From Schmidtea nova (lineage: Eukaryota): a DNA stretch of 64,000 nt. Each line of letters opens with the position of its first letter. Within the stretch, counting starts at the first letter, position 1. Shown here in pieces: positions 3,993 through 26,134 of this stretch. Location of the stretch: assembly GCA_044892505.1 (NCBI GenBank), contig CM097883.1:386632001-386696000 (forward strand). Direction: 5' to 3'. The position numbers and the translations under genes are program-made. A model generated the notes under the pieces. The model ran no database searches. It saw only the letters and a program-made list of their open reading frames with translations, and was not told where the DNA came from.

Positions 3993-4724
3993 TTGATTTA
4001 GTAACGTCCAATTTTTATAATTTAAGTATAATTCGTAATTGGTATAGTGAACCAAATCCAAGGTGACTAAGAATGCTAATAAAATTTGCTATAACACCGA
4101 ATTTGGATTATTCTTAATGTTGGGCAAAAACCACAAACTGTTTTAATAAAGCGATAACCCCATAGGTAGAGAGCGCGCAAGATTCAGTTTTAACCCAAAT
4201 ATCCCTTAAAAATCGAAACGATTAAGTGAAAAACAACAAAAGGTGAAGTGAACTCACAACACATCAACCGGTAGAGAACGCGCTAGCTGTGAGTCTGAAA
4301 GCCCTTACATTGAAACCTAGAGAAAAATCAAATGCCATCAAAAGAAGAACGTTTAGAAGTTAGAATAGGCGGAAAACCCATTGAAAATACCCACAAAAAA
4401 CGGAATTGTGTTATAAAACCTTCATGCAGAAAAAATTAACAGAATTTTAGCCGAAAATTGTGATTTTAGCAAAATATTTCACATTAACAATAAAAAGAAT
4501 TAATATTGATTGAAATATCGTAAATTAAATTAAATCGAACAAATTTCGATTCAAAAATAAAAATTTTGGATTAAAATAAATTATTTGTGTTTTGTAAAAA
4601 ATTATTACACAAAAATATGAATTTAATTTTCGGAAAATCATTAGAATTAATTTAGAAAAATTAAATGGAAAATTCTAGAACAATTTGTTTTATTACACTA
4701 CTGAAGGTAACGCAAAATCGATGG

Positions 4725-4747
4725 TATATATACCGCCATCAAAATGG
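4725..4747 (+). promoter_or_regulatory. Candidate LTR core promoter: TATA box followed by a YY1-like CCGCCAT/AAAATGG motif
   Basis: TATATATACCGCCATCAAAATGG. The same motif is kept in the diverged solo LTRs (24072-24100 minus; TATATAAATACCGCCAT at 28977-28993 minus) while the flanks have diverged. Confidence 0.5.
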
Positions 4748-4828
4748 AATTTTTCAGAATTTTGTGAAATTTTTTTTTGAAGAAAGCTTGTAAATTTTGA
4801 TTTCGTAAGTTCTATTCTTTTGTTGGCG

Positions 4829-4865
4829 CGGGGTCATCGAACACCATGCCTGTTCGATTACCCCG
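4829..4865 (+). ncRNA. Conserved stem-loop in the LTR with an invariant CATGCC loop (cis-acting RNA element)
   Basis: CGGGGT-C-ATCGAACA-[CCATGCC]-TGTTCGAT-T-ACCCCG. Homologous hairpins with different stems but the same loop core at 18963-18999 (+), 23779-23826 (-) and 28709-28738 (-, weaker stem). Confidence 0.65.
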
Positions 4866-23400: not shown

Positions 23401-24690
23401 CATTAGTATAACAAAACCTTGCTCTTGGCCAAACCACGATTCCCCAGTTGGGATGACGAGAATTTGGATGTATGAGCCTCACCTTAAAGTGGAAATATGG
23501 GCTGGCCGATTACCAATCAGACAACGATCCACCCAGGCTACTAACAGATCCGCACAACTAAGGCTGGACGGATCGTCAGAAGATATGGAAGATAAAAAAA
23601 AAAATTTTTCTTTACTTATTTTCGATAATTTTACTCAAATAACTGCTTGCAAAACAATCATTAAGTTGGGAATTTACGTGTTAGTATGATAATAATAACA
23701 AAAAAAAATTTTAATAAGAATTAATATTTTAATGATATATAAATCCATAAAATAATATATAACAAATTATCAAAGAACGAGGAGTGGGATGATCGTCAGG
23801 CATGATGGACGACCATTCCAATCCTCAAAAAATGAATATAACACAAAAAATTACTCCTTACGTTTCCTCACGAATTAATAAATTTTTCTAAAACTGGGTT
23901 TGAAGTTCTCTGGGATCCTAAAAATCTTCTCGGAAATTTAAAAGTTTTTTTTTCACAAATAGGACAAATCTTTTTTCTTCGGAAAAATTTTCACAAATTC
24001 TGCCCAAAACAAATGAAAAACTTTTCACCAAATTTGAAAAACGAGAAATTTTCCACAAAAATCTGAATTCTGCCATTTTGATGGCGGTATATATACCATC
24101 AAATTTTCTCTATCTCCGGTAGTGCAATAAAACAAATTGTTCTAGAATTTTCTCTTGATTTTTTCTAAATTAATTCTAATGATTTTCCGAAAATTAATTC
24201 CATATTTTTGTATAATAATTTTTTATAAACTACTAATAATTTATTTTTATTCAAAATTTCTATGTTTGAATCGAAATTTGTTCGATTTAATTTAATTTAT
24301 GATATTCGATCCATATTAATTCTTTCTATTGTTAAATGTGAAATTTTGTGATAAATTCACAATTTTCTTCTAAAATTTTGTTAATTTTTCTGCACTGAAG
24401 ATTTTATGACAAAATTCTGTTCTTTATGGGCACTTTCAATGGGTTTTCCGCCTATTCTAGCTTCCAAACATTCTGCTTTTAATTTTTCTCGAGATTTCAG
24501 TGAAAATATTCATAAATTCGCAGTTAGCGCGTACTCTACCGGTTGATGTGTTTTGATTCCACTTCACCTTCTGATGCTTTCCGCTTAATTGTTAGATTTT
24601 TAATGGCAGCTAAGGCTAAAATGAAATCTTGCGCGCTCTCTACCTATGGGGTTATCGCTTTATTAAAACAAATTGCGTTTTGGCCCAACA
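20433..24690 (-). mobile_element. Diverged solo LTR of the same family (4258 bp), inserted in reverse orientation into the 3' LTR
   Basis: Minus strand reads TGTTGGGCC...GACCCACCA. Perfect 4-bp TSD TTAT at 20429-20432 and 24691-24694. Removing it restores the 5' LTR sequence. All conserved LTR islands are present in order. Confidence 0.9.
21600..21870. repeat. ~42-45-bp minisatellite (about 6 copies) within the nested solo LTR
   Basis: Repeated aaagaatttttatcc(a)tttatgattgattttattgttattc units. Confidence 0.8.
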
Positions 24691-24694
24691 TTAT

Positions 24695-26134
24695 ATTACT
24701 TCATAAAAATTATAAATCTAAAATTTATAAAAAGTATTATTATTATTATTTTAATATAAAAATTATTATTATTATTTTAATTTTAAAAATATTTTATATA
24801 ATTTATATATATATATTATAAATACCCCCACGATATCTCAAAAATCATAATGCATCCCTATTTGCAAAAAATTACATCCATTTCATTCAATAACATTTCC
24901 CATACTAATACACAAGCAACATATATTTAAAATACAATATACACACATAAACAGTACCATATTTTAGCATTCAATAGTTATATACACACAAGCAAACCAT
25001 ACTGAAAATTCTACACAGTTATGTTAGTCGGCAACATACATCCAGAAAAACCATACAAAAATTTCTATCATTCAAACCTACCATATAAAATTGAATTTAC
25101 CCAGCCAAATAGGCCATTTACATTACAGTTTATTTTTAATTTACAAAAATTTCATAAAAATAATAAAAACTCAAACGAAAAAGAGTAAAGACGAAAAAAA
25201 TTTTTTATCTAAAGATTTATTGATAAAAATTCAGTTTGAGGGATAAGAGTCCCCGGCAAGGATTTTTTCCGGTTTACAATGCTTGAAGGGCCAGTTCCAA
25301 CATATTCTCTTCAAGAAATTTTCTAAAATTGTTCAAAATAAATTATAATTCTGAAATAATCAAAATTTTACTTGGTTGGTAGAGCGGGCTATTTTGCTTC
25401 ATAGGAGCTCGAGTTCTAATTGGATTGACCCGTTTGGGGTGGGAGAATTTTCCTCTGGTTTCGTAGTTTCTGGAGAGGTCCATTTCTTGTTGATCTGAAC
25501 TATAGAAATCGTTAATTTATCAATTTATTGAAAAATTCAGAAAATTACATTTAAAATTAATATGATTTTTAAATTGAGTAAATTTGTCCTTTTGATTAAA
25601 TTAGCAATTTTAAACAAACGGAAATTTTATTTTTATTATTTCTAAACTGGATTAAATTACGGTAATAATTAAAATTTTTCTTAAATTTCAAATGCAGATT
25701 AAAATTTTTCTATAAAAATATAATATTTTATGTATTAATTATCATAAAATGCAATATTGGTAAAAATAGGGTTATATTAGTGTTTTTGATACTCGAAATA
25801 ATTTAGTTGGATGCAATAATGAATTTATAGTTGTGTAGAGTGTTTATGTTGAATTTCCGATAAAATTTTGTTGAATGCTTATAGATCAATCATTAAAGGA
25901 GGGACAAAATGGGCATTAAACCTTCTATCGGTAGCCCTTGGACCCAGGAGATATTCGGTCAATCATAGTTTCGTATTGACGACGCTCACTGATTGCGAAT
26001 ACCCACCCACTTGTTACAGTACCAACGTTACATAGTGACGGGTAACAAGATGGTAGTTTAAATGTTTTATGTGTTGAGTTGTTGATGAGAGCCATAGAAA
26101 CGTCAAGGTCATATTGACGATCAACAACCCACCA
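24695..26134 (+). repeat. 3' LTR, right part
   Basis: Near-identical to ~6300-7742; ends CCCACCA. Confidence 0.9.

Follow-up and report, generated by a model that had tools for sequence, protein, structure and literature searches.

A giant Burro-like retrotransposon of Schmidtea nova in a broken copy, recently inserted and with a large internal deletion

A 64-kb stretch of the Schmidtea nova genome (contig CM097883.1, positions 386,632,001 to 386,696,000 of the forward strand; hereafter the window, in whose numbering all positions are given) carries at 4118-26134 a gypsy-type element with very long terminal repeats (LTRs), and raises the question of whether a retrotransposon has equipped itself with working genes for the control of its host. 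A sequence-only reading had distinguished an inhibitor-of-apoptosis (IAP)-type RING open reading frame (ORF), an integrase-ankyrin ORF and an ORF with four fibronectin type III (FN3) repeats and a transmembrane (TM) helix, and had taken them for captured ubiquitin-ligase, protein-interaction and cell-surface modules. Comparison with other copies gives a different answer: the element is built like the giant Burro retrotransposons, but it is a defective copy that inserted recently and has lost much of its interior. The RING, ankyrin and FN3-TM modules occur family-wide and are not insertions specific to this locus, but this copy makes none of them intact.

The outline given earlier, 3.6-kb LTRs around a 10.5-kb interior, was confirmed by self-comparison of the window, which located two LTRs with TG..CA ends (4118-7742 and 18252-26134). 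The second is split by an inverted 4,258-bp solo LTR with its own TTAT duplication; over the initial 650 bp it is 96% identical to the LTR found in another family copy (L013-14), and without this nested LTR the copy measures 17.8 kb. The 5' and 3' LTRs differ at just 6 sites in 3.6 kb (~0.17%), hence the insertion is recent. The outer target duplication is imperfect (TTAA/ATAA, 3 of 4 bases), and a perfect 4-bp duplication flanks six of seven other family copies, the seventh being unscorable. The primer-binding site (PBS) we take, from its resemblance to the murine leukemia virus site, to be tRNA-Pro-like. LTRs, PBS and half of the integrase are the Ty3/gypsy hallmarks that this copy keeps; gag, env, protease (PR), reverse transcriptase (RT), RNase H (RH) and the first half of integrase (INT) are absent from it.

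Beyond the partial integrase (Pfam rve_3, E 0.002, under the Pfam cut-off), the expected pieces are present: ankyrin (ANK) repeats match Ank_2 (E 1.2e-14) and the FN3 region matches fn3 (E 1.2e-6, mostly from repeat 2). All four FN3-type repeats align with one another (z 4.5-14), and for each of the six pairs 0 of 300 shuffles matched the score. Integrase, ANK and FN3-TM share one frame, split by two stops that were found in 0 of 77 other aligned copies; they are therefore one polyprotein tail cut by private stops and not separate cargo genes. No homolog of the FN3 tail was found among longer proteins of 1,193-3,405 aa, and a search of 1.8 billion representatives returned one weak, unrelated repeat protein only.

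The integrase piece has near-identical copies across the genome (G000). Two frame lengths recur among its best 150 matches, 4,991-5,006 aa and 1,344-1,352 aa, each with many members. The former belong to full copies of 28-31 kb, numbering at least 214 by an exact junction 22-mer; three were read whole (28.0, 30.3 and 30.6 kb, with 4.4-kb LTRs), and each encodes a polyprotein of 4,893-4,906 aa from its first methionine, which the window copy does not have. In the one full copy that was scanned, the order in a single frame of ~5,000 aa is gag-MATH-Bcl2-like-env-PR-RT-RH-INT-ANK-FN3-TM. Pfam recognizes Retrotrans_gag (E 4e-6), zf-CCHC and MATH (E 4e-24); three CCHC knuckles were counted by direct reading, and a fusion glycoprotein env (PF24664, E 1.6e-70) lies in frame upstream of PR. 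Ankyrin repeats are present here as in the window tail. The order PR-RT-RH-INT, the TG..CA LTRs, the PBS and the short target duplication place the full copies in Ty3/gypsy. The Bcl2-like segment before env has no Pfam match; a profile built from three sequences has Bcl-xL and Bax as its top matches, weakly (E 0.01), and Foldseek puts Bcl-xL first at E 0.4 from a model with a pLDDT (predicted confidence) of 54. Single-sequence matches of this region to bromodomains (E 0.013) were taken as noise. Of the SUMO-like and dUTPase-like segments of Burro, Pfam matched neither in the full polyprotein; a homologous stretch of the cargo-only class described below matches Rad60-SLD (E 0.018).

This is largely the architecture published for Burro1/GYPSM1 (Jurka 2007, Grohme 2018, via PMC6431247), which in the available text of that review has ~30 kb, multi-kb LTRs, a ~4,900-aa polyprotein, a three-CCHC gag, MATH, Bcl2-like and env in frame between gag and PR, then PR-RT-RH-IN, ankyrin and accessory ORFs. 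The same text lists MATH, BIR, ankyrin and BCL2-like motifs for Burro and proposes that they meddle with apoptosis and ubiquitination, and the BIR+RING protein of Burro1 is reported to shield stem cells from apoptosis (Lee et al. 2026, cited in the available part of PMC13465017). Virus-like cargo for apoptosis and ubiquitination on a giant gypsy element is thus known already, from Burro. The sequence-only reading had itself named a described family with the same cargo as grounds for refutation, and Burro largely provides one. Judged by the element alone, the host would likely be a triclad flatworm. Unlike Burro1, the full copies here have no BIR, and we therefore file the element as Burro-type, not as Burro1; a BIR-bearing IAP sits on a non-autonomous class instead. 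The FN3-TM tail is likewise not named in the available review text (0 matches to fibronectin or FN3). Fibronectin also goes unmentioned in the parts of PMC13524379 and PMC6338049 consulted, and the tail is possibly covered by Grohme 2018 or Lee 2026. No mention of Burro was found in the text or supplement files of PMC11410931 that were searched.

The window copy belongs to a class that is the full element minus ~11 kb at a single shared junction. The junction is identical in the window and four short copies, and recurs in 42 of 42 further members of the deleted class, a set picked by that junction; exact junction 22-mers give 222 deleted and 214 full copies, both lower bounds. An origin of the deletion from spliced RNA was rejected, as the junction has no GT-AG and carries 155 bp of class-specific sequence. 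The first copies by position on contig C1 were read, 42 deleted and 40 full. The 1,345-aa tail frame is open in 20 of the 42 deleted copies (one with an in-frame deletion; one more copy was missed by the end-motif test) and in 26 of the 40 full ones. Divergence was counted on 38 deleted and 39 full copies, leaving out of the 82 three tandem partners and two truncated copies. Between the classes it is 0.20-0.26 over the first 90 nt past the junction and then falls to the within-class level (fixation index 0.04-0.18). The two classes have 292 tail variants in common, and a tree of the tail (nt 150-1500) needs 16 changes of class, where a single clade would need 1 and shuffled labels need 26 on average and 17 at minimum. 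Recombination with full copies is thus the likely means by which the tail frame stays open in the deleted class. Three pairs of deleted copies (L030/L031, L033/L034 and L038/L039) lie ~14 kb apart with the same breaks and are likely tandem dimers sharing an LTR.

The RING ORF fares worse in both classes. In the window its domain is recognizable (Pfam zf-C3HC4_3, E 1.6e-6), but one zinc ligand is lost, a stop falls within the finger and the frame holds no BIR. Its likeness to IAPs is confined to their C-terminal part (26-32% identity, E 1e-5 to 2e-7). An IAP has at least one BIR, and this is a RING alone, and broken; of the "IAP-type" label only the C-terminal resemblance stood, and the true IAP is found on a sister class. 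Only 4 of 20 full copies and 4-5 of 42 deleted ones retain the complete 160-aa RING ORF, whereas all eight ligands survive in a frame free of breaks, if often shortened, in 13 of 20 and 29 of 42, respectively: the ORF is unstable in full and deleted copies alike. The window copy is dead for all RING, ANK and FN3-TM products and cannot make them intact.

The sister class was reached through the BIR. In G000 the best 150 BIR matches lie mostly in 399-aa frames and all in frames of at most 451 aa. Two of these loci, read from LTR to LTR, are 24-kb elements with the family LTR (94% at the ends), PBS and leader, perfect 4-bp target duplications and a 16-kb interior of at least seven ORFs; neither contains gag, env, RT or integrase. 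Their first ORF is a 1,036-aa PR-ANK-FN3 remnant, 43-61% identical to the full polyprotein (66% in one PR stretch; two whole copies compared). The others include a full TRAF (RING, zinc finger, MATH), a 399-aa IAP with BIR (E 2.9e-16) and RING, two coiled-coil proteins and one predicted protein with signal and TM segments. The first 56 LTR-PBS elements on C1 comprise 44 cargo-only copies, 6 full ones and 1 deleted one, plus 5 that are leader-only or other; of the 56, 40 were read over 10 kb and 16 assigned from their distance to known pattern matches. A 26-mer spanning LTR end and PBS occurs 2,215 times in G000 and a BIR 22-mer 320 times; extrapolation from one 26-Mb stretch puts the class at roughly 1,500-1,750 copies. 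The cargo is exchangeable: 15 of 35 cargo-only copies read carry TRAF and IAP, six carry instead a 482-aa protein resembling LamG-EGF neurexin/Crumbs proteins (score 0.95), 12 carry neither and two are unclear. A search for homologs of the IAP gave no match that passed. Three further cargo ORFs match no family: one for a protein of more than 213 aa, predicted to be secreted (L151:9263-9997), a 515-aa coiled coil (L130:6393-7973) and a 275-aa protein with signal and TM segments (L130:8883-9707). Inside the leader of one family copy lies a gag-protease frame of BEL/Pao type with a ubiquitin domain fused to it (L158:1-3081).

Decay of coding capacity is what one expects of LTR elements that are not autonomous. 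In 22 IAP-bearing copies, chosen by an exact BIR word and thereby biased to young copies, each of six cargo ORFs is nevertheless intact in 20-22 copies, and the first ORF is intact in 16. The ratio of nonsynonymous to synonymous polymorphism (pN/pS) is 0.23 for shared and 0.48 for private variants (p=1e-7); shared stops number 0 against ~68 expected and private stops 2 against 27. The cargo genes are under strong purifying selection in elements that show no replication genes in the sequence read. Refreshing from full copies does not explain this intactness, because the full copies read lack the TRAF and IAP genes (their MATH is only 39% alike and they have no BIR). Selection thus acts on TRAF, IAP and the other cargo, nearly stop-free, in the commonest class of the family, which is unable to copy itself.

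Combined, these results make it probable that the window holds a recent insertion of a Burro-type, env-bearing Ty3/gypsy element that a deletion has made non-autonomous. It belongs to one of three classes with LTR, PBS and leader in common, and full-class enzymes likely copy all three. Perfect 4-bp duplications and near-identical LTR pairs show that deleted and cargo-only copies are recent integrase-made insertions, made without an integrase of their own. RNAs of the defective classes would be packaged together with the helper RNA of the full class, and template switching during reverse transcription would renew the deleted class from the helper pool, both in its LTRs and in its ANK-FN3-TM tail; the shared variants, the drop in divergence past the junction and the tail tree all fit repeated switching of this kind. 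Cleavage of the polyprotein would free the FN3-TM tail to act as a second surface protein.

Several observations weigh against parts of this account. Burro membership rests on architecture set beside the published description of Burro1, three published BURRO1 primers have 5-8 mismatches and fit no better than shuffles, and Burro1 has a BIR, for which three full copies, 20 leaders, 40 tails, one deleted copy and the window gave no match. The Bcl2-like assignment is weak by the profile and Foldseek values above. The FN3 fold is without structural confirmation (AlphaFold from the single sequence gives pLDDT 34), language-model matches for the region stay below 0.9, the signal-like segment of the window's family falls below the hydropathy threshold and a profile of the four FN3 repeats finds no homology in the ectodomains of relatives. 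Finally, variants shared only among deleted copies have a pN/pS of 0.46 against 0.67 for private ones, with 2 stops against 5 expected, so that there may be some selection within the deleted class.

That last point belongs to the rival that survives best, in which the deleted class is selected to make ANK-FN3-TM from its own first ATG and is a functional sub-genomic partner and not a passenger refreshed by recombination. The 1,345-aa frame, open in 20 of 42 deleted against 26 of 40 full copies, and the sharp end of the decay ~110 nt past the junction, upstream of the first ATG, fit such a role. The lowered pN/pS, however, corresponds to 42 nonsynonymous and 31 synonymous shared variants against 161 and 82 private ones, which is not significant (Fisher p=0.21), and private stops are at neutral expectation (19 against 13.7). 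Divergence also drops within a few hundred columns 5' of the junction, in a gappy alignment, with no gene start there, and the junction is no splice. We consider this role rather doubtful.

A second rival concerns the cargo-only class, which might be the deletion product of another autonomous element with its own TRAF and IAP that keeps those genes refreshed. The modest identity of the first ORF to the full polyprotein suggests descent from a sister lineage, and published Burro1 places the BIR within an autonomous element (available text of PMC6431247). Against it, gag, env, RT and integrase at 70% identity or more were found in 0 of the 40 LTR-PBS elements read over 10 kb each, no new long ORF appeared past the leader, all the best 150 BIR matches lie in short frames and both copies read from LTR to LTR lack pol; such an element appears unlikely. 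That the window holds three separately captured, working genes is highly improbable: all three domains are detected, but ANK and FN3-TM are in frame with integrase in other copies, the tail stops are private and the RING ORF, seldom whole in the family, is broken here, which refutes three working genes for this copy.

The cargo-only class resembles large retrotransposon derivatives (LARDs) in its long LTR pairs, lack of replication genes and likely mobilization in trans. Captured content of the LARD type can be non-coding and seldom spans more than 10 kb from one LTR to the other (PMC6431247, available text), whereas the 16-kb interior here has at least seven ORFs under purifying selection and the class outnumbers its likely helper. 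Nor is the interior non-coding or decayed: any given cargo ORF is intact in 16-22 of the 22 IAP-bearing copies, and about half of the deleted copies keep the 1,345-aa frame. Replication-defective transducing retroviruses, also moved in trans, carry host-derived signalling genes. A BIR+RING IAP between Burro-type LTRs recalls B-IAP (Lee et al. 2026, via the available part of PMC13465017), except that B-IAP is placed on Burro1, whereas the 399-aa IAP here lies beside a full TRAF in an exchangeable cassette on elements without gag and pol. Bdelloid LTR elements are also reported to have extra ORFs, with different cargo (PMC5408684). We met no description of the pol-less class in the literature searched; Grohme 2018 and Lee 2026 may cover it.

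The membrane tail extends beyond this family. In an RT phylogeny the window's element falls in a clade (support 99/99) with six database polyproteins, P0006-P0011, which are 42-45% identical to the full element across PR to INT, and two smaller families of G000. A TM helix after integrase ends 9 of 9 clade polyproteins and 0 of 7 outgroup proteins, and a second, signal-like peak is found in 8 of 9 and 0 of 7, respectively; an FN3-like motif occurs in several of the clade. The tail is thus predicted to be a second type I surface protein, cut from the polyprotein, beside the fusion protein; our best guess is that it would attach to a cell-surface receptor or interfere with one. GAG-ENV-POL errantiviruses of the gB type in flatworms, nematodes and bryozoans similarly place a fusion glycoprotein between gag and pol in flatworm Ty3/gypsy elements (PMC13524379), but the available part of that paper mentions neither Burro, ankyrin nor fibronectin, and no second membrane protein after integrase was seen there. 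No description of such a protein at the end of Burro-clade polyproteins was met in the literature searched, which did not cover Grohme 2018 and Lee 2026. The two smaller families are gag-env-pol elements (L121-L124, 3,401 aa, LTR 0.86 kb; L125-L128, 3,393 aa), each with a 470-480-aa 3'-5' exonuclease-like ORF downstream of the polyprotein.

Table 1. Features of the element, in window coordinates
Feature	Position	Strand	Remarks
5' LTR	4118..7742	+	3,625 bp; TG..CA; imperfect 7-bp terminal inverted repeat
Interior between LTRs	7743-18251		10.5 kb
PBS	7753..7770	+	starts 10 bp past LTR; identical 18 bases in 7/7 other copies
Broken RING accessory ORF	10692..11072	+	BIR-less; IAP C-terminal relative; stop at 10998-11000 inside finger
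21-bp tandem array in leader	12062..12441	+	also in full and cargo-only copies
Deletion-class junction	12870..13024	+	replaces ~11 kb: gag, MATH, Bcl2-like, env, PR, RT, RNase H, integrase N-half
Integrase core, C-half	13025..13605	+	first 110 nt decayed throughout deleted class; private stop 13603-13605
Integrase C-terminus, ankyrin repeats, acidic linker	13606..15105	+	ankyrin repeats ~14275-14505; private stop 15103-15105
Predicted type I membrane module	15106..17151	+	FN3-type repeats, TM, cytoplasmic tail
Weak signal-like segment of membrane module	~15214-15264	+	
Four FN3-type repeats	15286-15537, 15664-15915, 15958-16209, 16360-16611	+	Thr-rich spacers
TM helix	~16813-16878	+	followed by basic stop-transfer and cytoplasmic tail
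3' LTR, first part	18252..20432	+	
Nested solo LTR, same family	20433..24690	-	4,258 bp; TTAT duplication at both sides
3' LTR, second part	24695..26134	+	

The leader also holds a 107-aa hydrophobic antisense frame (8847-9170, minus strand). Just upstream of the element and outside the LTR, a 560-aa frame is open at 2310-3992 (plus strand) with no Pfam or NCBIfam match, and just downstream lie older, ~70%-identical fragments of the same LTR (28930-29525, minus strand, and 28316-28495). Further along are an inverted repeat pair (30243-31297 / 46296-47089; 74-84% alike, ~16 kb apart) and, at 52740-64000, a tandem array unrelated to the element (1,338-1,341-bp unit, at least eight copies, 99% alike). 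No RNA data set was listed as holding the stretch. Horizontal transfer was considered and set aside: two runs bearing the labels of other organisms contain the stretch at a depth of ~10-40, but another run of that study reaches ~10,000, which makes carry-over likely, and they were not used.

A broader reading, which we regard as possible but hold tentatively, is that of a divided, multi-component retroelement, in which a minority helper would give gag, env and pol, and satellites outnumbering it several times would use its LTR and PBS and carry selected, exchangeable host-control cassettes (TRAF+IAP, the neurexin-like surface protein, secreted and coiled-coil proteins). The anti-apoptotic gene reported to aid planarian stem cells would have moved from the autonomous element to a satellite, and all Burro-clade polyproteins would end in a fast-evolving second surface protein, here with four FN3 repeats, partnering the fusion protein. 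What appears new here, against the literature searched, is that the family is split three ways, with a helper class, a deleted class and a cargo-only class under selection, and that a membrane tail runs through the whole clade. The conserved tail is a candidate attachment protein of an env-bearing retroelement, for which spread from cell to cell is hypothetical. As the Burro IAP is reported to aid stem-cell survival, the selection on the cargo raises the question of whether it is kept for the spread of the element or for the host. If the broader reading is true, host, helper and satellite may be mutually dependent.

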